A stretch of DNA of 64,000 nt from positions 138,813 to 202,812 of the forward strand of contig CAZMLK010000002.1 in assembly GCA_964567265.1 (NCBI GenBank), written 5' to 3'. Positions 6,155 through 62,276 of the stretch are shown here, one piece after another (positions within the stretch are counted from its first letter, which is position 1; the number at the start of each line of letters is the position of its first letter). The notes below the pieces were generated by a model that was given only the letters and a program-made list of their open reading frames with translations, did not search any database and was not told where the DNA came from. The stretch is from an uncultured Candidatus Saccharibacteria bacterium (GTDB taxonomy: Bacteria > Patescibacteriota > Minisyncoccia > Phycocordibacterales > UBA12088). A program made the translations under genes and the position numbers.

Positions 6155-7684
6155 CTATCTTGCCATCTCGAGCACGCGCTGTTCGCGGATGACCAAGACG
6201 CGGATTTCTCCTGGGTATTTGAGCTCCTGTTCAATCTTGAGCGCGATATTGCGCGCGAGATCGCGTGCTTCAAGGTCAGAGATCGCATCAGGACGTACAA
6301 ACACGCGGATTTCGCGGCCCGCCTGGATCGCATACGCTTTATCGATCCCATTGAATGAGTTCGCGATCGCTTCGAGGTCAGCAAGGCGCTTGATGTAGTT
6401 CTCGACGGAATCGCGGCGCGCGCCCGGGCGCCCGCCCGAAATCGCGTCCGCAACCTGCACGATCACCGATTCGATGGTGTCATACGGATATTCCTCGTGA
6501 TGGGCGCGCATCGCGTGGATGATGGCCTCGCTCGCGCCGAATTTCTGGAGGATGCGGATGCCGATCTCGACATGCGAGCCCTGGACCTCATGGTCGACCG
6601 CCTTCCCGAGATCATGGACGAGCGCGCCTGCCCGCGCGACCGCTGGGTCAGCGCCGAGCTCTGAGGCCAGCATGCCTGAGATGTGCGCCATTTCAACCGA
6701 GTGCTGGAGGACATTCTGGCCGTAGCTGGTACGGAAGTAGAGGCGGCCGAGGACCGCGAGAATGCGCGGGTCGAGGTTGAGGACTCCGGCTTCGTACGCT
6801 GCCTGCTCGCCTTTTTCCTTGATAATGCGGCCAATCTCTTCTTCAGCTTTCCGTACCATCTCCTCGATCTTCGCAGGCTGGATGCGTCCATCGAGTATGA
6901 GGTTCTCGAGCGCGATCCGCGCGATCTGCCGGCGGACCGGGTCGAAGGATGAAAGGGTGATGGTACCTGGGGTATCGTCGATGATGACTTCGACGCCGGT
7001 CGCACGCTCGAAGGCCTTGATGTTGCGGCCCTCCTTGCCGATGATCTTTCCCTTGATCTCATCGTTCGGGATGGTGATGGTGGTCGTGAGCACGTCCGAA
7101 TTCACTGAATTCCCGAGCCGGTGGATGATCGAGGTCAGGATTTCCTGCGCCTTCTTTTCCAACTTCTCCCGTCCGACGCCTTCGAGCTTGCGCATGCGGA
7201 TGCCGAGGTCTTCCTCTTCCTCGCGCTCGATGCGCTTCATGAGCTCGTTCTTCGCTTCTTCGGTCGTGAGCTTCGCAACGCGCTCAAGTGCTGCATGCTG
7301 CTCCTCTTCCGCCTTCGCGATCTTCTCGCGGATGACCTTGATCTCCTCGATCTTCGATTTCACATGCTCGACTTCGCGCGTCACATCATTCTGGCGCTGC
7401 TCGAGGGTCTCCTCCTTCTTGATGAGGCGCTGCTCGCTCTTCTTGATCTCGTCTTCCTTTTCTTTCAATTCCGCGAGCTTCGCCTTCGCGGCGATCTCGC
7501 CCTTCCGCTCGCCTTCGTCGGTCAGCCGCTTCGCCTCCTCCTTGGCTTCGAGCATCATCTTCTTGATCTCGAGCTCGACCGAACCCTTCTTCCCGAGGGA
7601 GACGATCAGGCGGAGGAAGTAGCCGAACCCTATGCCGAAGAGGCCAGCGAGGCCGAGGAGCATCAGTATTAATTTTAGGGACAT
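6155..7684 (-). CDS. rny: ribonuclease Y
   Basis: N-terminal TM, long coiled coil, KH domain (IGKEGRNIKAFERATGVEVIIDD), HD domain (HSVEMAHISGMLA...LVHDLGK). Confidence 0.9.
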   Translation of the reverse strand: MSLKLILMLLGLAGLFGIGFGYFLRLIVSLGKKGSVELEIKKMMLEAKEEAKRLTDEGERKGEIAAKAKLAELKEKEDEIKKSEQRLIKKEETLEQRQNDVTREVEHVKSKIEEIKVIREKIAKAEEEQHAALERVAKLTTEEAKNELMKRIEREEEEDLGIRMRKLEGVGREKLEKKAQEILTSIIHRLGNSVNSDVLTTTITIPNDEIKGKIIGKEGRNIKAFERATGVEVIIDDTPGTITLSSFDPVRRQIARIALENLILDGRIQPAKIEEMVRKAEEEIGRIIKEKGEQAAYEAGVLNLDPRILAVLGRLYFRTSYGQNVLQHSVEMAHISGMLASELGADPAVARAGALVHDLGKAVDHEVQGSHVEIGIRILQKFGASEAIIHAMRAHHEEYPYDTIESVIVQVADAISGGRPGARRDSVENYIKRLADLEAIANSFNGIDKAYAIQAGREIRVFVRPDAISDLEARDLARNIALKIEQELKYPGEIRVLVIREQRVLEMAR

Positions 7685-13985: not shown

Positions 13986-14624
13986 CTAATCAAGCAATTT
14001 GAAGCTTTTCCAGATCCGATCAAGATCTGCCATCGGAATTCCGCGTGTCGTTATGCGGTAAAAATATCCTTTCCAAATGAAAAGTGTTGTGCGCTCCTCA
14101 TCTTGCTCAGCCACGGTATGTACGGGATCTTTGGACATGTCGAACTTCCTCGTCAACGCAGGAACGCCAGAAACGGTCGTCTGCCCGATAAGATAATTTT
14201 CTTCATTGCCAACCCAGTGGTGGTATTCATCCGACAGTGATCCAGTCGCTGCTTGGGAGTTTACGGTAAGGATCCTCTCCTTCCCGGTCATATCATTTGC
14301 AATGAGCGCATAGGATGTATATTGATTCGGGTCGCCTTCGCCTACTAACATGCCGGAGGGGCGAAATTCCATATCGGAAGGCGCGTCAACGGAAAAGTGA
14401 AGAAAGTCATTTTTGTAGCGAACCCATTCACTAGAGAGCTGGGTGGATGACCCAGTGAATGATGTCGGAAGTTCATCTGCGCGTAATGTCCGACTTCCTT
14501 GCATACTCACACTCTGTGGAGCCTTACCAGAGTTCATTTTTGCAGCGAAATAAATAATACCCCCTGCGATAACGAGGGCCCCGAGAAAAATAAATGTAGC
14601 GACGCTGAGGTTTGATTTTTTCAT
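13986..14624 (-). CDS. hypothetical N-terminally anchored protein (low-GC island gene 1)
   Basis: MKKSNLSVATFIFLGALVIAGGIIYFAA anchor; about 45% GC versus about 60% background. Confidence 0.5.
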   Translation of the reverse strand: MKKSNLSVATFIFLGALVIAGGIIYFAAKMNSGKAPQSVSMQGSRTLRADELPTSFTGSSTQLSSEWVRYKNDFLHFSVDAPSDMEFRPSGMLVGEGDPNQYTSYALIANDMTGKERILTVNSQAATGSLSDEYHHWVGNEENYLIGQTTVSGVPALTRKFDMSKDPVHTVAEQDEERTTLFIWKGYFYRITTRGIPMADLDRIWKSFKLLD

Positions 14625-14692
14625 GTGGATGCAATGATAGCAATAAGAAATTTTGGATTTAAAAAAAGTAGTTGCCCTATCTTACATGGAAC

Positions 14693-15553
14693 TTAATGCA
14701 ATTCGACATGTCCAAATGGTGATTTTTCCACTCTAACGCAAGGCAATGTCTGGGCAATTTCGTTGATCGTTTCCAATTGCGCTTGGCTCTTGGATGGGGG
14801 CCATGCTCCCTCAATCGACAATGCCCATTCACCCACATCCTCCAAAACATAAGTGTAAGTCACTATTTTTGCACCTCGTTTCTCGTGGATGATGATGGTT
14901 TGCGTCGTAACCTCTTTGATGGAGTCAACCAACTGCTGAACGACCTCACTGCGTGCATCTGGTGGAATTTCAAAAATAATGCTTGGCGCGTCAGCAGTTG
15001 TTGCTCGGTCGTAGTAGGAAGTCACTACTGCAATATTCCTTGAGTCAATTTTCTTACTGGTGATTGATTTCCAGATTGCAATAATTATTCCGTCTCGCAC
15101 TATTTCCCACATTGCTGAATCTATATCAGCTTGAATGTGAGCAATGGCCCAGTCTTTTATAGGAATGAGTATTGTTATGGCGTGGGAAGCGAAGTCCACC
15201 AGACCTATCATTTCTGCGCTCACCCCTCCTCCATATCCATGGGTATGCCAATTTAGCTCGTATTGATACTTCCCATCTATGTGTTCTTTGGCATGCTCAA
15301 CAGCCGCATCATCCACAATTGTCACCTCCAACCCCGTTTGTTTTGAGGTCAATTCAGAGACTAAGGGTGTAAGTAGGGAGTTCTCGATTTTTATGCGAAG
15401 TTTCAAGTCCCCGTTGCCAATAATGTTCTGGGCCGATTCTCTTGCCGCCTCAAGTTCTGCGTAATATTTTTGTGAAAAATCAAACACTCTAGCAGATTTT
15501 CGCTGTTCTAGGATACGGAGTAAAAAATTTTCGAGTTGTTCAAAAATTCGCAT
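14693..15553 (-). CDS. hypothetical cytoplasmic protein (low-GC island gene 2), contains NWHTHGYGGG motif
   Basis: 286 aa, no TM, no recognisable family; lower GC than surroundings. Confidence 0.5.
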   Translation of the reverse strand: MRIFEQLENFLLRILEQRKSARVFDFSQKYYAELEAARESAQNIIGNGDLKLRIKIENSLLTPLVSELTSKQTGLEVTIVDDAAVEHAKEHIDGKYQYELNWHTHGYGGGVSAEMIGLVDFASHAITILIPIKDWAIAHIQADIDSAMWEIVRDGIIIAIWKSITSKKIDSRNIAVVTSYYDRATTADAPSIIFEIPPDARSEVVQQLVDSIKEVTTQTIIIHEKRGAKIVTYTYVLEDVGEWALSIEGAWPPSKSQAQLETINEIAQTLPCVRVEKSPFGHVELH

Positions 15554-15594
15554 ATATTCGTAAACAGGCCTCCTTGCGGAAGCCTGTTTCTTTT

Positions 15595-16746
15595 CTACTC
15601 TTCTTTTTTGTCAGCTTTGCCTTCGAGGATTTCAAACACTTTCTCGTTACGCATGATGGTTTCGACGTACATGCGGACCGAGTCGGGGTTTGCTTCCTTG
15701 TAGTGCTCGAGGACGTGGTTCACGTCGCGGGCGACCTTGTCCTCAGGGAGGAGGATGGTCTCCTTCTCGCTGATCGCGTTCAGGATGAGCTGGAGCTTGG
15801 CGCGCTTCTCGGCTTCTGGCTCCCATTCCTTGCGGATGTCCTCAGGCGATTTGCCGAGGTGCTGGAAGTAGGTTTCCGGCTCGACGCCCATGCGCTCGAT
15901 CTCGGAGCGGAACTCGCCCATCATCTTGTCGAGCTCTGAGTCCTTGAGGATCTTCGGGAGGGCGATCGTTGCTTTCTCGACGAGCGCTTCGACGATGGCG
16001 AGGCGACGCTTCTCCTTTTCCTTCATTTCTTTCTCGGATTTGATGTTCTCACCAATCTTGGTGCGGAACTCGGCGACGGTGCCGAATGAGCCGAGCTTCT
16101 GGACGAACGCGTCGTCGAGCGCAGGAAGGTCCTCGTCCTTGATGTCGCTGCCGTCGTGCGCGCCGTGTTCGCCGGCTTCGTGACCTTCTTCGTCCTCATG
16201 CGCGTGATGCTGCTCGTAGTGCGCCATGCGGCGGCGGATGGCGAGAATGGCCTCATCCACTTCTGCTTCGGTTGGGTCGGCGACCGTGCTCTCCATCTTC
16301 TTCACGATCTTCTCGGAGATTGCCTTGTAGTCGGGGAGCTCGAAGGTCGGGACGACCGCCGTTTTCGCGACGAAGGAGACGGGGTTGCCGCGCGCGAGCT
16401 TGGTGATCGAGATATGCGGCCGGCCGATCACATCGAGCTCGTTGTCGATGATGATCGCGGGATACACGTCGGCGAGCGCTCGCTCGGCCATTTCTTCCAT
16501 GATCGCCATCTCGCCCACCTGCTTCACGAGCACCTCCTCAGGAACATGTCCTTTGCGGAAGCCGTCGATCTCTACCCGCTCGCTGACATACTTCACGGCC
16601 GCCTTCCGGTAGCTGTTGATGACTTCGACCGGGATATCGCCGCGGATTTCAAGCTCTGACTGCTCGAGCTTGATGATCTCGAGGTTGGTATATGGCTGAT
16701 TTCCTGGCTTCTTTACTTCGTTTGTTTCCTCGTGTGAGTCTTGCAT
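15595..16746 (-). CDS. tig: trigger factor lacking the PPIase domain (His/Glu-rich linker instead)
   Basis: Ribosome-binding signature GFRKGHVP in the N-domain, TF C-terminal chaperone domain; middle region HYEQHHAHEDEEGHEAGEHGAHDGSD replaces the FKBP domain. Confidence 0.8.
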   Translation of the reverse strand: MQDSHEETNEVKKPGNQPYTNLEIIKLEQSELEIRGDIPVEVINSYRKAAVKYVSERVEIDGFRKGHVPEEVLVKQVGEMAIMEEMAERALADVYPAIIIDNELDVIGRPHISITKLARGNPVSFVAKTAVVPTFELPDYKAISEKIVKKMESTVADPTEAEVDEAILAIRRRMAHYEQHHAHEDEEGHEAGEHGAHDGSDIKDEDLPALDDAFVQKLGSFGTVAEFRTKIGENIKSEKEMKEKEKRRLAIVEALVEKATIALPKILKDSELDKMMGEFRSEIERMGVEPETYFQHLGKSPEDIRKEWEPEAEKRAKLQLILNAISEKETILLPEDKVARDVNHVLEHYKEANPDSVRMYVETIMRNEKVFEILEGKADKKEE

Positions 16747-37598: not shown

Positions 37599-37628
37599 AA
37601 AAAAGCCAGGGTCCGGGTGGACCCTGGC
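37599..37628 (-). repeat. hairpin repeat copy 1 (gccagggtccgggtggaccctggc preceded by A6), reads as an intrinsic terminator on the minus strand
   Basis: 24/24 identity with 37814-37837 except one loop base; flanking similarity extends to ...gggaggc. Confidence 0.6.
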
Positions 37629-37807: not shown

Positions 37808-37837
37808 GAAAAAGCCAGGGTCCGGAGGGACCCTGGC
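37808..37837 (-). repeat. hairpin repeat copy 2 (gccagggtccggagggaccctggc)
   Basis: See copy 1. Confidence 0.6.
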
Positions 37838-46958: not shown

Positions 46959-47339
46959 ATGGCAACGAAAGAAACTACAGAAGCTCCGAAGCGCGCCAAG
47001 CGCGCGGCGAAAGCTGTCAAAGGAGTTGAAGCCGTCTCCAAGCTCCGCATTCGCGTGCGCGCCTATGAGCACAAGCTCCTCGACGCATCCGTAAAGCAGA
47101 TCATGGACACCGCGCTTCGCTTCGATGCCACCATCGTCGGTCCGATCCCGCTTCCGACGGAAATCAAGAAGTACACGGTGAACCGCGCCGCATTCGTCTA
47201 CAAAGACGCGCGAGAACAATTTGAAATGCGAGTGCACAAGCGCCTCATCGACATCCTGAATCCGTCCGCGAAAGTCATCGAGTCCCTGACCAACCTCACC
47301 CTCCCATCCGGCGTCAACATCGACGTCAAGATGGTTTAG
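46959..47339 (+). CDS. rpsJ: 30S ribosomal protein S10 (with about 25-aa basic N-terminal extension)
   Basis: KLRIRVRAYEHKLLDASVKQIMDTA...RLIDILNPSAKVIESLTNLTLPSGVNIDVKMV. Confidence 0.9.
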   Translation: MATKETTEAPKRAKRAAKAVKGVEAVSKLRIRVRAYEHKLLDASVKQIMDTALRFDATIVGPIPLPTEIKKYTVNRAAFVYKDAREQFEMRVHKRLIDILNPSAKVIESLTNLTLPSGVNIDVKMV

Positions 47340-47384
47340 GTAAAAGGAGTCAAACAAAAAATCCCCTCACGGGGATTTTTTGTT
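47319..47384 (+). repeat. direct repeat, left copy (last 21 nt of rpsJ + stop + terminator)
   Basis: atcgacgtcaagatggtttaggtaaaaggagtcaaacaaaaaatcccctcacggggattttttgtt. Confidence 0.75.
47352..47384 (+). terminator. rpsJ terminator aaacaaaaaatcccc-tcac-ggggattttttgtt
   Basis: Hairpin 13 nt after the rpsJ stop; this is the part duplicated at 48221-48270. Confidence 0.55.
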
Positions 47385-47426
47385 ACACTATGGAGGATTT
47401 CTTTTACATACTAACCGTTCAATCTC

Positions 47427-48131
47427 ATGTCAGAAGGATTCCACGAGGCGAGTGCAGAAAAATCACCCAAGGAGGCATTTACAGAAAAATTCCTTGATCA
47501 GCCTTACGGGAACCTGACAGAAGAACAGCAGGCGATGCTTCGTACGCATGTTGAGGGGCGGGAGGGTCCATGGACAACGGTGCCGAACATATTCGATGTA
47601 ACTTGGGATGATGAAGCGAAACGGATTGTCATCGAGCTGTCTGAGGGAGGAAGCCAAACGTTTATATACGACCCCTTCGTGCCGAAGGTGCCACAAGCTG
47701 CACCACCTGTAGAATCAAGAGGAGACTCCGAGCCGAGTGGCGCAGTAAAAGTCGGGGAAGAACCCGTCTCAGTTGTGACTCAGAGCAACGAGGCGTTGCG
47801 CACCGTGATCCCTGGCGGGGAATGGATCGATTTGTCTGGGAAAAAGATCGTAACCGATCAGGCTGGCTTGTATTCAGGCAAAGAACTGGTCATGAAAACG
47901 GGTGCCGCGAACACGATGAATTTTGTCGGCAAATATAATTTCCACGAGGGAACGATGATCGTTGGAGGGCCCGATGGCTCACTGCACGCGGCTCCGTACT
48001 CGGCAGAGAGAGAGGAGGCGCTCAAAAGCGCAGGGTACAAGCAAGAGTTCGAGCTGGTGCCGAGTTTAACAGGTCATCAAAGGTTCGAAGACGAGGAGAC
48101 CCAGAGGGTATTTGAAGCGCTAAAAAACTAG
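47427..48131 (+). CDS. hypothetical soluble protein (island gene a)
   Basis: 234 aa, no TM, no recognisable motif; lies between the two direct repeats. Confidence 0.5.
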   Translation: MSEGFHEASAEKSPKEAFTEKFLDQPYGNLTEEQQAMLRTHVEGREGPWTTVPNIFDVTWDDEAKRIVIELSEGGSQTFIYDPFVPKVPQAAPPVESRGDSEPSGAVKVGEEPVSVVTQSNEALRTVIPGGEWIDLSGKKIVTDQAGLYSGKELVMKTGAANTMNFVGKYNFHEGTMIVGGPDGSLHAAPYSAEREEALKSAGYKQEFELVPSLTGHQRFEDEETQRVFEALKN

Positions 48132-48191
48132 CTTCACTCTTCCTAGAAGTCAGGCGCTTCACGTGCGGGTGTTCTGTGTCACGGTACCGGA

Positions 48192-48270
48192 ATCGACGTC
48201 AAGATGGTCTAGGCGAAGGAGTCAAACAAAGAATCCCCCCAAGATAATTTCTCTAGGGGATTTTTTGTTT
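48192..48270 (+). repeat. direct repeat, right copy (degenerate rpsJ 3' end ...GIDVKMV* + terminator-like hairpin with enlarged loop)
   Basis: atcgacgtcaagatggtctaggcgaaggagtcaaacaaagaatcccc[ccaagataatttctcta]ggggattttttgtttttt; about 85% identity to the left copy outside the loop insertion. Confidence 0.75.
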
Positions 48271-48401
48271 TTTAAGAAAATAGAGATTCCGCAGAAAGGG
48301 AGGATCGGATCAAATAGAGACATTGACAAATCTATTATATGTGGTATATAATACCGCCAGATAAAGTCCTTCAATCATCGCGCTTCGGACGGAGAAAACC
48401 C

Positions 48402-48866
48402 ATGCGCCTTTCCTTGATTCTGGCCTTCGTACTCGGTCTCCAGAGCGGTTTTGTCGGCAATTCTGCTCACGCAGAGATTGCGACACCCGCCGATCTGCCC
48501 GCAGACTATGCTACCTGGCAAACGTTGCATGAACTCTCTTGTGAACCGCTGTCGATCAAAGTGTATTCGACAATCACGCCGGATGCCGAGATGGAGCTTC
48601 TGACCTACACCCTCGGCAAGAATCTGGTCGCGTACTCGATGTCATCATCCACAAATGCTGGCAAGGTAATCACCGACCATGGCCTCTACAAAGGGGAATG
48701 GAAATCGGTCGATGGCACCGATGCCAATAAGGAGAAATCGGAGCGTCTCGTGAATGCCGCCCTTCTCGATAACGGTGGACAGCCTGCTCTCGTTGCGTTC
48801 GGCCAGTGTAAGCAGGAGCTTGTGCGTAAAATCATAAAGGCTTTCTTTGCACCACTTGGCAGGTAA
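48402..48866 (+). CDS. hypothetical secreted protein (island gene b)
   Basis: Signal peptide MRLSLILAFVLGLQSGFVGNSAHA; start trimmed from ORF-track 48339. Confidence 0.45.
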   Translation: MRLSLILAFVLGLQSGFVGNSAHAEIATPADLPADYATWQTLHELSCEPLSIKVYSTITPDAEMELLTYTLGKNLVAYSMSSSTNAGKVITDHGLYKGEWKSVDGTDANKEKSERLVNAALLDNGGQPALVAFGQCKQELVRKIIKAFFAPLGR

Positions 48867-48912
48867 AACGGAGCCCATTGCATCAGTGTGTGTTCCTCGC
48901 CGTTGATACCCG

Positions 48913-48950
48913 CCCCCAGTCCACGCATGGACTGGGGGCTTCATTTTTTT
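48913..48950 (+). terminator. terminator cccccagtcca-cgc-atggactggggg + TTCATTTTTTT
   Basis: 11-bp stem followed by T7. Confidence 0.55.
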
Positions 48951-49155
48951 GCCTCATGGGGATTTTTTGATTTTTGTTGAAAATAGAAAAAGCCGAAATG
49001 CGCTGTTTCGGCTTTCTTCCTCGTGCATGAGGGTCACGGGTTCGGTGGTTAGTATAGTCTGCCACGAACAGGCATTGGTACAGCTTCTCATTGGACGTAG
49101 CGTTGCTAAAGCAAAAGAAAATCGCTGCGGGCCCGATGGTCCGCAGCGACATCCG

Positions 49156-49803
49156 TCATGCGCTCTGAGGGAATGAGGGCGTCAGAGTGGTGCGACGTCC
49201 CCAGAGATACATACAGAGGAGGATAAGTCCCGAAACGACGAGCAGGATCCCGCCAATTGCAGGGATGAGCCATGCTTGGCGCGTTCCGTCCGAATAGAAA
49301 TCGAACGTGAGATTTTCTCGGTCAACGCGCACTTTCCCCACGTAGGTGAAAAAAGTGTAGTCAGGAAGTGGCACTGCCGCGCTGATGTAGGTCGATAGGC
49401 CGTTCTCCAGCCTGACCAATGCGGTATATTCGACCACCCCATGGAGACCTTTGCCGTCCATGCTCCCGTCGTCCCGCCACCCATTCTGGATTACCACGAA
49501 TGTTGGAACGCTATTCCCCGTTCGTTGCTGAAAATCCTGCATTGGCAATTCTGCCGAAGGCGTACCGTTCTCGAAGGAAAGCACGCTGAGGGTCGTTGAA
49601 TTGTTCGGCTTCCACAACTCGACGTGTATCGGATCAGGCATAGGACTTGCAGTCCATCCAATCAGCATCCATGCACCGAGGGCAAAAATGCCCAGAGGCC
49701 ATCGATAGGTTTTCCACGCACATTTCAGTATCTTTCGAAACGGCTTTCTCTTCGAATTACCAGTCATCTTCCATGCTCCATGGATAGAGTGAACCCACGC
49801 CAC
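49156..49803 (-). CDS. hypothetical membrane protein (island gene c; TM at each end, extracytoplasmic middle)
   Basis: LGIFALGAWMLIGW and AIGGILLVVSGLILLCMYLW helices; hairpin aagccgaaatgcgctgtttcggctt downstream. Confidence 0.45.
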   Translation of the reverse strand: MAWVHSIHGAWKMTGNSKRKPFRKILKCAWKTYRWPLGIFALGAWMLIGWTASPMPDPIHVELWKPNNSTTLSVLSFENGTPSAELPMQDFQQRTGNSVPTFVVIQNGWRDDGSMDGKGLHGVVEYTALVRLENGLSTYISAAVPLPDYTFFTYVGKVRVDRENLTFDFYSDGTRQAWLIPAIGGILLVVSGLILLCMYLWGRRTTLTPSFPQSA

Positions 49804-49915
49804 CGTACCATCCGATCTTCAAAATGTAAATAAATATCTTCGCCCTCTGTGCGTAGACCGAGGGCTCCGTCGTTCCATGGTTCCTGAAAGCCGTTTGGTG
49901 CTATGCTACGGAGTC

Positions 49916-50377
49916 ATGAAGCAGAAGCTGAAAGCGCTATTCAAGTTCGCCTCCCCGGCCATCCTGCTGGTATTCCGGACGTACTACTTCATCTTCCGCC
50001 CGAAGGGGGAGAGCGTGAAGTGCGTGATCCGGAACGGTGGCAACATCCTCCTCATCCGCAATTCGTACGGCGCGAAGTTCTGGACGCTTCCCGGTGGCGG
50101 CGTGAAGTCGAGCGAGACCCTGGAACAGGCGGCCGTCCGCGAAGCACATGAGGAAGTCGGCATCGAGATCCGCGAGCAGGACCTCACCAAGCACGGCAAG
50201 GTGCGCTACCTCCTCGACTTCCGCCGCTCCACGGTCTGGGTGTTCAGCGTCACGGTGCCGTCTCCCGCATTCCACCTTCATGGCGTCGAGATCGAGGAAG
50301 CGAAGTGGTTTCCCGAGAACGCAATCCCCGGCATGCGCTCGCATCTCCTGGAACGTTTCCTCGATTTGGCGAAATAA
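49916..50377 (+). CDS. Nudix hydrolase (island gene d)
   Basis: Nudix box GGGVKSSETLEQAAVREAHEEVGI (Gx5Ex7REUxEExGU); start trimmed to MKQKLK. Confidence 0.75.
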   Translation: MKQKLKALFKFASPAILLVFRTYYFIFRPKGESVKCVIRNGGNILLIRNSYGAKFWTLPGGGVKSSETLEQAAVREAHEEVGIEIREQDLTKHGKVRYLLDFRRSTVWVFSVTVPSPAFHLHGVEIEEAKWFPENAIPGMRSHLLERFLDLAK

Positions 50378-50433
50378 CCGACCGATTTTAGAGTCGGTAT
50401 TGACTATGAAATTAAATTCGTCATGCTGGCACA

Positions 50434-51069
50434 ATGACTAGGTCCACAGAGGAATCACTTGAAATCATCTCAAACCAATTTGTCGTGAAGCGTCGGTTTA
50501 CCACGGGTACATTCAACCTTATATTGGGTGCGGTACTAGGCGCCACTTTGACTTTTTTAGTAGGAGCTATTAATTCTTACATCTCCAACCAAACCTTACG
50601 TCAAGCGGTTGCAAAGAGCATCTACATTGAAATTGAGCATAATAAAATTTTTTTAAATAGCTCTGTATCTGATTTAAACAGCGCAGTTTTAGATTGGAAA
50701 GGCAACAAAGGAAATAAATTAAATATGCAAGTATTCGCCCTGCATAGAGAAGACTTCTACCAAATTTATCTCCAAGATTTAACTCTATTAGATAAAAACA
50801 CTCTAGATGAAACCTACGAATTTTACGGAAGACTTAGGACCATTGATTACCTAACAAAATTAATCACTGATGATTTTGATCTCTATTACAGAAATGAAAA
50901 TCTAATTTCTAGAGCTGATATCTTGTCCCGACTAATGGAATTACAGCAGGATGTGGATGAGGCGCTTCGGAATGCTGACAAAATCCAAAGAGATTTAATT
51001 ACTAAATATGATGTTAACAGTGTTCAGAGTTCCTGTAATCCAACCAATTGTCTAACAAACTCTTGGTAA
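50434..51069 (+). CDS. hypothetical protein with N-terminal TM, very low GC (about 38%) (island gene e)
   Basis: Asn/Ile/Leu/Tyr-rich, AT-rich codons, in strong contrast to the about 60% GC host. Confidence 0.5.
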   Translation: MTRSTEESLEIISNQFVVKRRFTTGTFNLILGAVLGATLTFLVGAINSYISNQTLRQAVAKSIYIEIEHNKIFLNSSVSDLNSAVLDWKGNKGNKLNMQVFALHREDFYQIYLQDLTLLDKNTLDETYEFYGRLRTIDYLTKLITDDFDLYYRNENLISRADILSRLMELQQDVDEALRNADKIQRDLITKYDVNSVQSSCNPTNCLTNSW

Positions 51070-51075
51070 AGAGAG

Positions 51076-51104
51076 TTGCATCCTTTCAGACCTTCCTGTA
51101 TAGT
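51076..51104 (+). promoter_or_regulatory. candidate rplC-operon promoter TTGCAT-N17-TATAGT
   Basis: 145-nt leader follows with nested hairpins (gtccatt...aatggac enclosing gtccc-aata-gggac). Confidence 0.4.
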
Positions 51105-51249
51105 CCATTTACTCTCGTTCTGAGAGATTCTATGTCCCAATAGGGACCAATGGACTGAAATCCGCAAGGGATTCGTCCTTGGCGGTATTTTTAATACCAA
51201 AAACGATCAAAAGACGGTAGAAATCTTCAAAAAACCTATAAAACTCAAC

Positions 51250-53841: not shown

Positions 53842-53859
53842 GATCAAGACACGGGAAGA

Positions 53860-53899
53860 AACAAAAGGGCCGCGCGAACGCGCGGCCCTTTTGTTTTTG
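53860..53899 (+). terminator. terminator aaacaaaagggccgcgcgaacgcgcggcccttttgttttt after rplB
   Basis: 13-bp GC stem plus TTTTGTTTTT. Confidence 0.65.
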
Positions 53900-53911
53900 A
53901 TTGGAAATGAT

Positions 53912-53957
53912 CATAAAAAGATGAAGCCGCCGGCGTGCGTACGTGCGCCGGCGGCTC
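53912..53957 (-). terminator. hairpin aagccgccggcg-tgcgtacgtg-cgccggcggctctt with T-run on the minus strand
   Basis: Downstream of minus-strand ORF 53981-54289. Confidence 0.45.
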
Positions 53958-53980
53958 TTCAATTACACCCGGAAGGGGAG

Positions 53981-54289
53981 CTATCTTTTGCCGTTCTCGG
54001 CCGATAGCAGAAACGCCGTCTTGTCGTTGCGGACGGGACGCGCAGTCATCCTGTTGCCTGTAAGGGCTGCTAGGAGACGCGCAATCTGCTGGAGCTGGCC
54101 TTCGTCGGCGATCGTCACATCAGAACGCATTCCATCCACCAAAAGGTAGATTTGATTATTGCCCCTCATGATGAGCAGGGTGCCGCCGGGAGCCGAGACA
54201 ACGTCCCCCTCTTGGGGTGCTGTGGATCCGAGCTCACCATTGCATCTCAGTTCACATGCCACAATTAGTACCTTCCTGCAGTTTTCCAA
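53981..54289 (-). CDS. hypothetical 102-aa protein (inserted between rplB and rpsS)
   Basis: ORF with its own terminator; LLIMRGNNQIYLLVDG; possibly a small alpha/beta regulatory (roadblock-like) fold, uncertain. Confidence 0.45.
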   Translation of the reverse strand: MENCRKVLIVACELRCNGELGSTAPQEGDVVSAPGGTLLIMRGNNQIYLLVDGMRSDVTIADEGQLQQIARLLAALTGNRMTARPVRNDKTAFLLSAENGKR

Positions 54290-54861
54290 GTGACATTAAG
54301 AAGCAATCTGACGATTTGTCAAATTTCTTCTTTAGGGAAGCCCTAAAAAGATACGCCCCCGAGCTGCTCTGCAGCTCGGGGTACGTGTGTTCAGTAGGGG
54401 AGGGTCATTTCTCCCTGACGCGGCATCTGTGGTTCAAGAGGGACGGAGGACTTGAGCTCCTTCAGCTTGCAAACAAGCCTGAACGCCCTACCTATTTCCT
54501 GCGCCATGCGGTACTTCTGCTTGCCCTTCAGCAATATCGGCGTTTCCAAATAGAAGCTTGCTTCTGCCCTGGACCAGAAACAACGTCGTACCCGTTTCCG
54601 GCCAAGTATCCTGATGGCAACCGCAATTGCCACGGCTTCGAAGTAAGGACGCTCGACAACATAAAGCCCTTTGCACCGGATGAGGAGAAACTCGCAATTG
54701 GTCGTGGCATCTCGGCACCCAAAGTCGCGAACGCTCACGCGCTTGGGGGAAAACGCCTTGGTCATCCACTTTCCTCCAGAAAAGGCGGTAAAGAACAGCC
54801 GATATTAAAAACTCTATACGCCAATCTGTCAAGGGTAAGGAAAGAGGAAAGCGCCTTTTGT

Positions 54862-54890
54862 TTGACAGAAACCCCCGTTTTGCGTACTAT
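54862..54890 (+). promoter_or_regulatory. rpsS-operon promoter TTGACA-N17-TACTAT
   Basis: Consensus -35, 17-nt spacer, near-consensus -10, 40 nt upstream of rpsS. Confidence 0.5.
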
Positions 54891-54929
54891 GCTTCCCAAG
54901 CTCTCTCGCGAGCTATTTTCTTTACAGAA

Positions 54930-55280
54930 ATGACACGATCACTCAAAAAAGGCCCATACGTCGACGAAAAGCTCCTCAAGAAGATCGAGGGGAAGAAGGC
55001 TGGCACCACCGGCCCGATTAAGACGTGGGCACGCCGCTCGCAGATCGCCCCAGAGATGGTCGGCTTCACGTTTGGCGTTCACAATGGCAAAGACCATGTC
55101 CCGGTCCTTGTGAGCGAAGAAATGGTCGGCCATCGCCTTGGAGAGTTCTCTCCGACAACCAAGTTCGTCCGCCACGGCGGTAAGATGCAGAAGGAGCTTG
55201 AATCCAAGCGCAAGGAGGCAGAAGTCGCAGCAGCAAAGGCCGCAAAGGCTCCCGCAGCCGCGCCTGCTAAGAAGAAATAA
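54930..55280 (+). CDS. rpsS: 30S ribosomal protein S19 with Ala/Lys-rich C-terminal tail
   Basis: [20 protein letters not shown]...[10 protein letters not shown]; tail [17 protein letters not shown]; start trimmed to ATG 54930. Confidence 0.9.
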
Positions 55281-58126: not shown

Positions 58127-58660
58127 ATGGAAATGGTTCAGGAAAAACAGAATAGCGCCTTCGCAACCCTCAAGGGAGATTTCGGATACACGAACAAGAT
58201 GCAGTCACCGAAGCTCGTGAAGGTGGTCATCTCGGTCGGAACCGGCTCAAACAAGGATAAGGAGAAGATCAAGGTCATCGAGAACCGCCTGCCGAAGATT
58301 ACAGGCCAGAAGGCTGCACAGCGGACGGCGAAGAAGGCTATCGCCTCATTCAAGACACGCACCGGCATGGTGATCGGCTACCAGGTGACGCTCCGCGGCC
58401 AGCGCATGATGGACTTCCTCAACAAGCTCATCCACGTCGCCCTCCCGCGTACGCGCGACTTCCGCGGCCTCTCCGCAAAGTCTATCGATGACATGGGCAA
58501 CTACACCCTCGGCATCAAGGAGAACACCATTTTCCCAGAGACATCGGACGAAGACTTGAAGGATGTGTTTGGTCTCGCGATCACGATTGTGACGACTGCG
58601 AAGTCGAAGCCGGAAGCAGAAGCCTTCCTCCGCCACATCGGCATGCCGCTTCAGAAATAG
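58127..58660 (+). CDS. rplE: 50S ribosomal protein L5
   Basis: DFRGLSAKSIDDMGNYTLGIKENTIFPE. Confidence 0.92.
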   Translation: MEMVQEKQNSAFATLKGDFGYTNKMQSPKLVKVVISVGTGSNKDKEKIKVIENRLPKITGQKAAQRTAKKAIASFKTRTGMVIGYQVTLRGQRMMDFLNKLIHVALPRTRDFRGLSAKSIDDMGNYTLGIKENTIFPETSDEDLKDVFGLAITIVTTAKSKPEAEAFLRHIGMPLQK

Positions 58661-58677
58661 ACCCAGAAATTTTAAAG

Positions 58678-58720
58678 AAACAAAAGGCCCCCGGCGCTTC
58701 GCGCCGGGGGCCTTTTGTTT
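58678..58720 (+). terminator. terminator aaacaaaaggcccccggcgcttcgcgccgggggccttttgttt after rplE
   Basis: 16-bp GC stem, TTTTGTTT tract that runs directly into the next promoter's -35. Confidence 0.65.
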
Positions 58721-58747
58721 GACAAGCCGCCAAATCATCAGTACCAT
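58719..58747 (+). promoter_or_regulatory. promoter TTGACA-N17-TACCAT
   Basis: -35 overlaps the terminator U-tract; drives small ORF 58804-58986. Confidence 0.45.
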
Positions 58748-58803
58748 CGATTTTTGGAACGATAGCCGGGCAATTCCGCCCCTATCCATCCGGAGAGTTT
58801 CAG

Positions 58804-58986
58804 ATGCCGACCAAGGGTTCGCCGATGAAGCGGTTCCGTCCGAATCGGGGCCAGCAAACACCAGGACAGCGTGCTTCAGCGCTCCGAAAACTGCGGCAAC
58901 GAGGGCACAAAGTAGCAACCCGGACCATCGAGGACGCGAGACGCGCGGCATATGGCGCTCGAAAGGCAAATTTGACTGCCGACTGA
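58804..58986 (+). CDS. hypothetical 60-aa basic protein
   Basis: Own promoter and own terminator; Arg/Lys-rich (pI high); no motif. Confidence 0.35.
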   Translation: MPTKGSPMKRFRPNRGQQTPGQRASALRKLRQRGHKVATRTIEDARRAAYGARKANLTAD

Positions 58987-59012
58987 TCATTCACGCTAGG
59001 AGCTGGTAACGT

Positions 59013-59043
59013 ACACCGGCCGAGGTTCCCTCGGCCGGTGTTT
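59013..59043 (+). terminator. terminator acaccggccgagg-gttc-cctcggccggtgt + TTGCTTTT
   Basis: 13-bp stem. Confidence 0.55.
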
Positions 59044-59047
59044 GCTT

Positions 59048-59075
59048 TTGACAATGGCTGAGAAGGTCGTACTAT
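59048..59075 (+). promoter_or_regulatory. promoter TTGACA-N16-TACTAT
   Basis: Drives ORF 59109-59516. Confidence 0.45.
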
Positions 59076-59108
59076 CGTCAGTAGTGTGCTCTGTGCGGAG
59101 GGGATGAG

Positions 59109-59516
59109 ATGACACAGGTAAGCATGTTCGGGTTGCCGACGCTCGCAGTCGAGATCGTGGGTGACCATGTCCACAGCCTTACGCACTACTTGTTCGAGAC
59201 GAGTCGGATGGTCGGGGAGGATGGGGCCGTTTCCCATTACGCAGCAGTCGTGTACGCCAGGCTTCCGTTCGGATTAGATGCGGTGTATCGGAATGAGGGA
59301 GCTGCCAGCGTTCCAACCAGCAGGCTGATCGAATCCGGCTCCCGTGACCCCATTTTGGCGGCGGTACCAGGGCTTTTCAAGTATCAGGCCGATACGAAAG
59401 CATCCTGGGACGCATTTCTCCGGGAAAAGCTCCTGCCGTATGTGCCTGCCGGCAGAATTCTAGTCCTTTGGATCAGTGAAGACGGCGCCACTGAGACCTC
59501 GTTTGTCGTATCGTAG
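59109..59516 (+). CDS. hypothetical 135-aa protein
   Basis: Own promoter and terminator; no motif recognised. Confidence 0.45.
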   Translation: MTQVSMFGLPTLAVEIVGDHVHSLTHYLFETSRMVGEDGAVSHYAAVVYARLPFGLDAVYRNEGAASVPTSRLIESGSRDPILAAVPGLFKYQADTKASWDAFLREKLLPYVPAGRILVLWISEDGATETSFVVS

Positions 59517-59532
59517 CCGCCCCTTGAGACTA

Positions 59533-59570
59533 CGCCGCCGGCCAGGTTTCCTGGCCGGCGGCTCTCTTTT
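59533..59570 (+). terminator. terminator cgccgccggccagg-tttc-ctggccggcggc + TCTCTTTT
   Basis: 13-bp GC stem. Confidence 0.55.
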
Positions 59571-59580
59571 CCGCCTTTGT

Positions 59581-59609
59581 TTGACAATGTATATTCAGGC
59601 TGTTAGTAT
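59581..59609 (+). promoter_or_regulatory. promoter TTGACA-N17-TAGTAT for the rpsN-secY block
   Basis: 57 nt upstream of rpsN. Confidence 0.5.
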
Positions 59610-59666
59610 AGCCGGAAGCTCGTTTAGGGCTTTCTTTTTTAGTTAGGCCTCGAAGAAGCACGCCAC

Positions 59667-59852
59667 ATGGCAAAGACATCAGTAAAGGTCCGGGCAGCCC
59701 GGACACCGAAGTTCGCAAGCCGCGTCGTACGACGCTGTTTCCGTTGTGGCCGCAAGCATGCGTTCATGCGCGATTTCGGACTTTGCCGCATCTGCTTCCG
59801 CGAACAGGCTAACGAAGGAAATATCCCAGGAATCAAGAAATCATCATGGTAA
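59667..59852 (+). CDS. rpsZ: 30S ribosomal protein S14 type Z (zinc-binding)
   Basis: 61 aa, [21 protein letters not shown]4 zinc knuckle. Confidence 0.92.
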
Positions 59853-61184: not shown

Positions 61185-61817
61185 ATGGCAGAGGAACCCA
61201 TGACAACAGAAGACACACTCGTGACCCCGACAGAAACGGATGCGGTTCCGGCCGTGGACGGTGTTGCCGATGAAGTTGCCGCTCCTGAGGCTGCTCCCGC
61301 AGAAGCTGTACGCGCACCACGCGCTGCATTTTCGAAGAACCGCCGCGAGCCGAGCCGCTCACGCCGCACTCCGCGCGAGCGCGTCCGTCCTGAATTCGAT
61401 CAGAAGATGATCTCGATCCGTCGCGTTGCCCGAGTGGTCGCCGGAGGCCGCCGCTTCAGCTTCTCCGTCGCGCTCGTCGCGGGAGATCGCCGCGGACGCG
61501 TCGGTGTCGGACTCGGGAAGGCGGGCGATACGTCGCTCGCGATCGAGAAGGCGCTTCGCGCCGCAAAGAAGGCGATGATCACTGTTTCTCTCACTGAAAA
61601 CAAGTCTATTCCGCATGATGTCGACGCCAAGTATGCGAGCGCGCGCATCATGATGCGCCCGGCTCCAGGTCGCGGTCTCGTCGCCGGCAGTGCCGCTCGT
61701 ACGGTCCTTGAACTCGCAGGCATCACCGATGTCTCCGCAAAGATCCTCTCCGGCAGCAAGAACCGCCTCTCGAATGCGATGGTTGCGATCGAAGCGCTTA
61801 AGAAATTCAGCGCGTAA
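61185..61817 (+). CDS. rpsE: 30S ribosomal protein S5 with about 60-aa acidic/Ala-rich N-terminal extension
   Basis: uS5 dsRBD and C-domain (GRRFSFSVALVAGDRRGRVGVGLGKA). Confidence 0.9.
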   Translation: MAEEPMTTEDTLVTPTETDAVPAVDGVADEVAAPEAAPAEAVRAPRAAFSKNRREPSRSRRTPRERVRPEFDQKMISIRRVARVVAGGRRFSFSVALVAGDRRGRVGVGLGKAGDTSLAIEKALRAAKKAMITVSLTENKSIPHDVDAKYASARIMMRPAPGRGLVAGSAARTVLELAGITDVSAKILSGSKNRLSNAMVAIEALKKFSA

Positions 61818-61826
61818 CCTACTATC

Positions 61827-62276
61827 ATGCAAAGCAACACACTCAAGCGTCATACACCGAACGAGGGATCGCGCCGCGTTGGACGTGGCGGCAAGCGCGG
61901 AAAGACCTCGGGTCGCGGCGGCAAGGGCCAGACCGCGCGCGCAGGCTCACGCCTCCGCCCGGAAATGCGAGATACGATCAAGCGCCTTCCGAAGCTCCGC
62001 GGTCACGGCAAGAACCGTTCGCACACCGTGAAGAGCGAGATGGCGCGCATCGTCCCGGTGAATCTCCGCGTGCTTGAGACCCATGTCTCAGTCGGCGACA
62101 CCGTGAACCCGGCATACCTCGTCCAGAAGGGTATCGTGAATGCAGCCCGCGGCCGCGCGCCGAAGGTGAAGATCCTCGGTGTCGGCGAGCTCACGAAGAA
62201 GATCACGATCTCCGGATGCGCAGTCTCCGAGTCCGCGAAGGCGGCAGTCGAGAAGGCAGGCGGTACGGTACTCTAG
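61827..62276 (+). CDS. rplO: 50S ribosomal protein L15
   Basis: GRGGKRGKTSGRGGKGQTARAG... Confidence 0.92.
   Translation: MQSNTLKRHTPNEGSRRVGRGGKRGKTSGRGGKGQTARAGSRLRPEMRDTIKRLPKLRGHGKNRSHTVKSEMARIVPVNLRVLETHVSVGDTVNPAYLVQKGIVNAARGRAPKVKILGVGELTKKITISGCAVSESAKAAVEKAGGTVL

Follow-up and report, generated by a model that had tools for sequence, protein, structure and literature searches.

The 64-kb stretch of contig CAZMLK010000002.1 analysed here (the window, to which coordinates refer unless a related locus is named) carries a ribosomal protein gene cluster made up of fusA, tuf, rpsJ, rplC-D-W-B, rpsS through rplE, rpsN through rplO, and secY. An earlier note on this DNA, made from its letters alone, claimed two open reading frames (ORFs) with promoters and hairpins in about 1 kb between rplE (L5) and rpsN (S14), and we found all of them (Table 1). 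The block is ordered T1, then P1-5' untranslated region (5'UTR)-ORF1-T2, then P2-ORF2-T3, and finally P3-leader-rpsN. Promoter, Shine-Dalgarno (SD) and hairpin calls also bear out the proposal that each extra gene is a self-contained promoter-ORF-terminator unit. We compared the region with 49 species-level related loci and with contigs from close strains, all numbered with the prefix L. A four-genome alignment of the rplE-rpsN region, which includes L051 and L053, was the basis for phylogenetic footprinting.

Table 1. Features between rplE and rpsN, with two further islands of the cluster given as context.
Feature	Position	Strand	Details
rplE (L5)	58127..58660	+	Pfam Ribosomal_L5 and L5_C, E 5.5e-31; last gene of the predicted rpsS-rplE transcription unit
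T1, predicted terminator after rplE, bidirectional-style	58678..58720	+	AAACAAAAGG-GC stem-CCTTTTGTTT; -41 kcal/mol, z -8.3
Junction repeat, left copy	58710..58725	+	GCCTTTTGTTTGACAA; repeat search (family D14) and local alignment
P1, predicted sigma-70-type promoter of ORF1	58719..58747	+	TTGACA-17-TACCAT
ORF1 5'UTR	58748..58803	+	SD GGAGAG 58792-58797
ORF1, 60 aa, pI 12	58804..58986	+	Orphan protein; dN/dS 0.10-0.14
T2, predicted intrinsic terminator of ORF1	59013..59041	+	-28.9 kcal/mol, z -5.8; tail TTTGCTTTT runs into the P2 -35
P2, predicted promoter of ORF2	59048..59075	+	TTGACA-16-TACTAT
ORF2, 135 aa, pI 5.2	59109..59516	+	Orphan protein; SD GGAGGGG 59097-59103; dN/dS 0.09-0.23
T3, predicted terminator of ORF2	59534..59562	+	-34.3 kcal/mol, z -6.3; sharp right edge of the diverged island
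Junction repeat, right copy	59573..59587	+	GCC-TTTGTTTGACAA; repeat search and local alignment
P3, predicted rpsN promoter	59581..59609	+	TTGACA-17-TAGTAT with TG; would restart the rpsN-to-secY unit
rpsN leader hairpin	59614..59640	+	GGAAGCTC-GTTTA-GGGCTTTC plus U6
rpsN (S14), short 61-aa four-Cys Zn-ribbon form	59667..59852	+	Pfam Ribosomal_S14, E 7e-22
rplB/rpsS island (context)	53842..54930		Two minus-strand orphan ORFs, 53981-54289 and 54391-54765; rpsS promoter 54862
rpsJ/rplC island (context)	47340..51249		Modular, five genes, direct-repeat scars

Predicted promoters and terminators

P1, P2 and P3 each match 10/12 hexamer positions, with spacing within 16-18 nt. All six hexamers are invariant across the four genomes, while 7/16 positions of the P2 spacer differ in L053. 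By folding energy and z scores, the three hairpins have the stable GC-rich stem-loop of an intrinsic terminator. Pairing in T1 is retained in L051 and L053 via wobble changes and a paired deletion, and T2 has a compensatory A-T to G-C change in the same two genomes. T3 is invariant in the alignment and is therefore uninformative on the conservation of structure. The U-tracts 3' of the stems read TTTTGTTT for T1 (partly within the extended stem), the tail given in Table 1 for T2, and a weaker TCTCTTTTCC for T3.

The same hairpin-junction was said to recur three times. The tail of a terminator does abut the next -35, to the point that the final two T of T1 are the opening two bases of the P1 -35, but the literal hairpin-TTTTGTTTGACAA occurs at junction 1 only. 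Junction 2 has TTTGCTTTTGACAA instead, and 18 nt lie between the hairpin and the -35 at junction 3. We attribute the recurrence to a standard terminator tail (CC-TTTTGTTT) that abuts a consensus -35. The word TTTGACAA has 5 copies in the window where 1.5 are expected (5 were reached in 1/100 shuffles), and phylogenetic footprinting is stronger evidence for the elements than this enrichment.

Whether the junction is simply a house style of the genome has a divided answer. The window holds 32 distinct strong perfect GC-rich hairpins, 10 of them of the form CAAA-stem-TTTG, including ones after fusA, rpsJ, rplB and rplE, so the hairpin-TTTGT half is the general terminator style of this genome. Canonical promoters (TTGACN-N16-18-TAnnWT), on the other hand, are rare: there are 6 in 64 kb, all on the + strand and all within the ribosomal cluster. 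T1 and the rplB terminator (53859-53896) have identical outer arms, and apart from these shared arms T1-T3 have no common word of at least 8 nt. An origin of the hairpins from repetitive extragenic palindromes or miniature inverted-repeat transposable elements was ruled out, because T2 and T3 share no such word and the hairpins are not one sequence family. A search of the window with Rfam gave a tRNA at 1714 as the sole match at gathering score, and a permissive threshold over 58600-59700 returned sub-threshold terminator look-alikes only.

Two orphan genes under purifying selection

By tblastn, ORF1 is found at the same site in L051 (93% identity) and L053 (74%). The gene finders of the public collections did not call it and no exact record exists there; no word-sharing candidates were found, and scans of IMG/VR and the JGI metagenomes came up empty. 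The protein is basic, as had been claimed (16 Lys and Arg versus 3 Asp and Glu). A single-sequence AlphaFold2 model with a predicted local distance difference test (pLDDT) of 80 has a disordered basic N-terminal tail and one long helix, residues 20-58. The C-terminal third is not conserved.

A word-indexed search of 5.8 billion entries placed ORF2 homologs in three clusters (99%, 82% and 69% identity), only at the rplE-rpsN/rpsH site. When 1.84 billion representative proteins were searched exhaustively by profile, only the cluster of ORF2 itself and P0004 came back, and the latter, a repeat protein with four matches to a 25-residue motif, was judged spurious as a homolog. Profile search of the PDB gave no match for ORF2, and its AlphaFold2 model (pLDDT 36) has no confident fold. 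Neither protein matches Pfam, PHROGs, PADLOC or NCBIfam, and against ribosomal-protein families there was no Pfam or NCBIfam match at E <=1. Six-frame profile search of the window and the 49 related loci found no paralogs of either. Nothing that points to a mobile origin appeared in phage DNA, plasmid proteins, IMG/VR or the JGI metagenomes.

Both frames stay open without frameshifts across saturated synonymous divergence, and both SD sites are conserved. The ratio of nonsynonymous to synonymous substitution rates (dN/dS) is 0.09-0.23. ORF1 and ORF2 thus evolve under purifying selection, and the open frames together with this ratio make them selected genes rather than spacer noise. We identify them as two new, selected protein families; judged from these sequence features, they are real and presumably expressed genes. 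That the ORFs are spurious and the region a long regulatory spacer, as the missing public call of ORF1 might suggest, is extremely improbable and is refuted by the dN/dS values.

Could the ORFs have arisen de novo in an expanded spacer, or diverged there past recognition, without being imported? Both are complete orphans, their GC content (0.57-0.61) matches that of the genome (0.568), and ORF2 lacks a confident fold. However, purifying selection is already strong and dS between alleles is saturated, so neither gene is very young, and the neighbouring islands described below clearly import foreign DNA, for example an ORF of 36% GC. We give this origin a low probability.

The block is present in every site-spanning contig that shares L5 or S8, and is therefore fixed in the species group. 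Conservation of the ORFs at this site in relatives had been named as an observation that would speak against inserted cassettes, and it holds in part, as the ORFs occur in every close relative sampled. In the comparison with L053, ORF1 and ORF2 have dS >2 and 60-72% nucleotide identity, versus dS of about 0.15 for rpsN and rpsH. Precisely at T3, identity to L053 jumps from 62% to 100%. Over the 130 nt that span T3, P3 and the leader up to the rpsN ATG (59534-59666), the four genomes are 100% identical, and their flanking genes differ. Such mosaic divergence is suggestive of recombination whose break point was the terminator; the alternative is very different constraint on either side. L002, the closest species-level relative, has homologs of T3, P3 and the leader with other upstream content, and lacks ORF2.

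The upstream part of ORF1 is also constrained. Its promoter and 5'UTR are about 91% identical to those of L053, compared with 64% for the coding sequence. In the predicted fold of the 5'UTR (-19.1 kcal/mol, z -2.5), UUUUUGGA pairs with UCCGGAGA, a pairing that would occlude the SD. The 5'UTR is highly conserved, and its variants are too few for a covariation test.

Our best guess, held with low confidence, makes ORF1 a small protein that binds nucleic acids or associates with the ribosome, and ORF2 a soluble protein of the cytoplasm that belongs to a new family. A stronger version would make both genes ribosome-tied, a lineage-specific ribosomal or ribosome-associated protein with its partner, kept in the cluster for co-regulation rather than as arbitrary cargo. 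The small size, high pI and tail-and-helix model of ORF1 resemble many small ribosomal proteins, its promoter is as near consensus as those of rpsS and rpsN, and the conservation of its promoter and 5'UTR points the same way. So does the fixation of the block while neighbouring islands vary. A syntenic basic ORF in L002 also matches ORF1 weakly (E 0.027 by profile, 0.01 by BLASTP). Nevertheless, the distribution covers one species group only, no ribosomal-protein family matches, the C-terminal third of ORF1 varies, and other relatives hold unrelated cargo here. GC content at third codon positions is 0.57 for ORF1 and 0.66 for ORF2 versus 0.70-0.83 for most ribosomal genes, which indicates poor codon adaptation. 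We consider a ribosome-tied pair quite unlikely.

A check of the 135-aa ORF for toxin/antitoxin-like features had been proposed, and the family searches above showed none. Two small neighbouring genes in a variable region, one very basic and one acidic, do recall a toxin-antitoxin or similar addiction or defence module. Against this, their 122-nt spacer contains the strong predicted terminator T2 and a separate promoter, the two proteins match no known system in PADLOC, Pfam, NCBIfam or PHROGs, and the pair has not spread to other genomes or sites. Such a module is very improbable.

Open junctions in the ribosomal cluster

The ribosomal cluster is tight in this lineage except at rplB/rpsS and rplE/rpsN, and in this genome rpsJ/rplC is open as well. 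Across the 49 relatives, the median gap is 4-10 nt for each of 17 adjacent gene pairs in the cluster, with at most one genome per pair above 300 nt. By contrast, the gap exceeds 300 nt at rplB/rpsS in 13/13 relatives and at rplE/rpsN in 18/39, where it reaches 3389 nt. A tight L5-S14 junction, described as normal in the earlier note, is true of Gammaproteobacteria and Bacilli (PMC8046335) but not of this lineage, since those 18 relatives carry more than 300 nt of unrelated cargo. The same core genes thus flank different content across relatives (0.3-3.4 kb).

All 39 relatives that have both genes have a spacer with an rpsN promoter, and even in the shortest gaps a TTGACW promoter stands directly behind the rplE stop. 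A clade-wide rpsN leader, with a GCTC-loop-GAGC hairpin and a U-run right before the rpsN ATG, has no obvious SD. We regard the T3-P3-leader segment with this hairpin as a candidate rpsN leader motif; its tag had no match in the JGI metagenomes. Because even short gaps hold the promoter and leader hairpin, rpsN is predicted to head a transcription unit of its own across the clade, and DNA placed in front of it would break no operon.

The cargo of the large gaps in relatives includes RVT_1, an extracytoplasmic function sigma factor, a ROK kinase with a TPR protein, DKNYY and PaaX_M, and is mostly orphan: 13/20 cargo ORFs in the rplE/rpsN gaps have no Pfam match. The RVT_1 reverse transcriptase (E 2e-24) lies at 2641-3657 of L006, and a PaaX/Cas2-like protein at 7026-7619 (minus strand) of L039. 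The size of the gap goes with the form of S14. The short 61-aa four-Cys form occurs in 21 genomes with a median gap of 529 nt, and the long 89-aa form in 18 with a median of 56 nt.

Closer strains reveal turnover at the two neighbouring islands. Across the cluster, the strain represented by L054 and L061 shares about 97.8% identity with the window, and three modules differ. First, a minus-strand orphan ORF (window 53898-54280) gives way to unrelated sequence with a different ORF in L054 (4728-5157); the edges of the replacement are the rplB terminator and, on the minus strand, a conserved promoter (TTGACA 54323-54318). Second, window 50380-51096, with a 211-aa ORF of 36% GC (genome 57%), is replaced by a HATPase_c/DUF4325 gene in L054 (809-1937), with break points at the NUDIX stop and the rplC promoter. 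Third, the ORF175 module (48240-48964), which has its own promoter (TTGACA-18-TATAAT at 48323) and hairpin (48912-48939), is missing from L061. The window has direct repeats of about 30 nt (48257-48285 and 48959-48988) on either side of it, and L061 2222-2345 is the empty site with a single repeat copy.

Other modules of the rpsJ/rplC island carry similar marks. A 51-nt direct repeat (46/51 identical; 47319-47369 and 48192-48241) brackets ORF234, a 234-aa orphan at 47427-48131. The repeat consists of the last 7 rpsJ codons plus the left arm of the rpsJ terminator, and looks like an att-like or Campbell-type insertion scar. In L066 the whole 3.7-kb island is replaced, exactly from the rpsJ terminator to the rplC promoter, and in L062 the NUDIX 3' end is duplicated over 48 nt. 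From the strain differences at rpsJ/rplC and rplB/rpsS we conclude that modules with terminators and promoters at their edges are gained, lost and swapped within the cluster. This turnover fits recombination anchored in conserved flanks, for example Campbell-type integration or repeat-mediated deletion. No recombinase, transposase or integrase was found among the island ORFs tested; the remaining window was not scanned for integrases. Presence/absence or replacement among close strains was seen at these two islands and not for ORF1-ORF2.

Several observations concern the surroundings. On its minus strand, the rplB/rpsS island is punctuated by terminator and promoter in the same way (hairpin 54381-54357). 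A conserved structured leader, about 150 nt long, lies downstream of the rplC promoter (TTGCAT-17-TATAGT with TG; window ~51077-51249) and has hairpins CTCTCGTTCTGAGAG, GTCCCAATAGGGAC and CAAGGGATTCGTCCTTG and then GCGGTATTTTT. It has no Rfam match and may be an L4-type autoregulatory attenuator. Between rpsE and rplO (61817-61827), rpmD (L30) is missing, as is typical of bacteria of the candidate phyla radiation (CPR). Further away, near-identical hairpins (GCCAGGGTCC...GGACCCTGGC) lie at 37605-37628 and 37814-37837, 209 nt apart, each with a minus-strand T-run behind it and no convincing ORF between them; they may be small RNA genes or duplicated terminators. A patch at 14001-16000 has a low GC content, 47% versus 57% for the window.

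Probable accessory genes at a transcription-unit boundary

We interpret the 1-kb segment as probably a lineage-specific two-gene accessory islet at a natural transcription-unit boundary of the S10-spc cluster in a Paceibacteria (Patescibacteria/CPR) genome. The site is best read as a local gene-turnover hotspot, not as a one-off intrusion into a tight operon. As we picture it, T1 would end the rpsS-rplE transcript, ORF1 and ORF2 would each be transcribed alone from near-consensus promoters, and T2 and T3 would block read-through. We propose that expression from rpsN to secY would in consequence be set by P3 and the invariant leader. Such terminator-promoter punctuation may insulate the stoichiometry of ribosomal proteins from the cargo. 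Cargo at the boundary would turn over via recombination anchored in conserved gene ends and terminators, as in the neighbouring islands, and the ORF1-ORF2 block would since have been fixed and maintained by selection in the species group.

The block is bracketed by a 15/16-nt direct repeat, GCCTTT(T)GTTTGACAA. The 15-mer GCCTTTTGTTTGACA occurs at P1 and at the rpsS promoter (54853-54867), and the P3 copy is the same minus one T. The junction was possibly duplicated when the block arrived, which would explain the flanking repeat. The repeat could be a duplication scar or could reflect convergence of a U-tract plus -35. Local alignment revealed no duplicate of the rplE 3' end behind ORF1 or ORF2 that would parallel the rpsJ scar.

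Several points weigh against the islet reading. Within the species group, the ORF1-ORF2 block showed neither an empty site nor alternative content. The bracketing repeat is made of functional elements and is possibly convergent. The T3 tail is a weak U-tract, and the promoter and terminator activity of P1-P3 and T1-T3 is predicted solely from sequence and its conservation. Codon bias, rather than recombination, may account for part of the very low dS of the ribosomal genes. Finally, gaps above 300 nt accompany the short S14 in 15/21 genomes and the long form in 3/18, counted without correction for phylogeny.

The earlier note spoke of modular cassettes dropped into the spc operon. The self-contained units stand, but the block has no mobile hallmark and no second copy; the neighbouring rpsJ/rplC and rplB/rpsS islands lend the idea indirect support. 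In its strict form, the cassettes would move by a dedicated integron- or att-like mechanism, with the repeated hairpin-TTTGTTTGACA as the recombination site, duplicated on insertion. The bracketing repeat with its third copy at the rpsS promoter would suit this, and so would the neighbouring single-gene modules with 30-51-nt terminator or gene-end repeats at occupied and empty sites. Two independent assemblies (Logan contigs L057 and L058) also stop about 22 nt past the rplE stop, at the start of the island; these ends may reflect strain heterogeneity or the strong hairpin. However, no recombinase or transposase is among the island ORFs tested, and the window, the related loci, the 1.84 billion representatives and the phage, plasmid, IMG/VR and JGI collections yielded no further copy of either ORF. 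In all relatives sampled the block is fixed and has been passed down vertically, and repeats derived from flanks are equally expected from Campbell-type homologous integration. We regard a dedicated mechanism as unlikely.

Integron cassettes share with these modules their short single-gene format, their head-to-tail arrangement and the imperfect palindromes between them. They differ in that the palindromes here are ordinary intrinsic terminators found genome-wide, with no attC-like conserved family, each ORF has its own promoter, and no integrase is among the island ORFs tested. Chromosomal hotspots of accessory genes between fixed core genes have reportedly been described by Oliveira, Touchon and Rocha in 2017. 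As in such hotspots, the same core pair (rplE/rpsN or rplB/rpsS) flanks unrelated, mostly orphan cargo here, and strain-level replacement has its break points in conserved flanks. In contrast to them, the sites lie inside the S10-spc cluster, normally the most syntenic part of a genome, each module is one gene of 0.4-1 kb that has a promoter and a terminator to itself, and no integrase, tRNA gene or prophage is involved.

In the S10-spc-alpha region of Bacillus subtilis, internal promoters subdivide ribosomal-protein operons. The likeness is that a promoter before an internal gene (here rpsN, rpsS and rplC) allows separate control of a sub-operon, but the subdivision here is complete, with terminator and promoter, and appears to serve foreign or orphan genes as landing sites. 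Interruptions within operons are unusual in well-studied phyla (Brandis 2021, PMC8046335). Insertions in that study fall between classical operons (rpoBC/str, str/S10) and are rare, old events. Like those, the genes described here are few and inserted between transcription units, but they lie inside the classical S10 and spc operons, recur lineage-wide and vary between strains. Recombination at rplE-rpsN-rpsH has been documented in Streptococcus pneumoniae, with replacement of the S14 isoform (PMC8046335). Our literature search found no paper on ribosomal-operon interruptions in CPR.

A bolder extension of the islet reading, which we hold to be rather unlikely, treats the fixed break points of short-S14 Paceibacteria (rpsJ/rplC, rplB/rpsS and rplE/rpsN) as dedicated landing pads. 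Strains would trade single-gene promoter-ORF-terminator modules through recombination at terminator or gene-end sequences with no element-encoded recombinase, and ORF1-ORF2 would be a domesticated, fixed example. If true, this would be a minimal cassette system that exploits a strong, insulated expression context and the extreme conservation of ribosomal-gene flanks, and ORF1 might encode a new ribosome-associated protein.

No part of a bacterial genome is regarded as more stable or syntenic than the S10-spc cluster, which is the source of the concatenated markers that place CPR lineages. Here the cluster of an entire CPR lineage is open at two or three fixed junctions, which collect strain-variable, mostly orphan genes. 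These junctions matter for binning and marker extraction, because assemblies break there. The fully conserved rpsN control region is worth testing. More broadly, the finding bears on how reduced genomes subdivide the expression of ribosomal proteins, and it offers a tractable site for watching gene gain and loss in bacteria whose mobile elements are poorly known.

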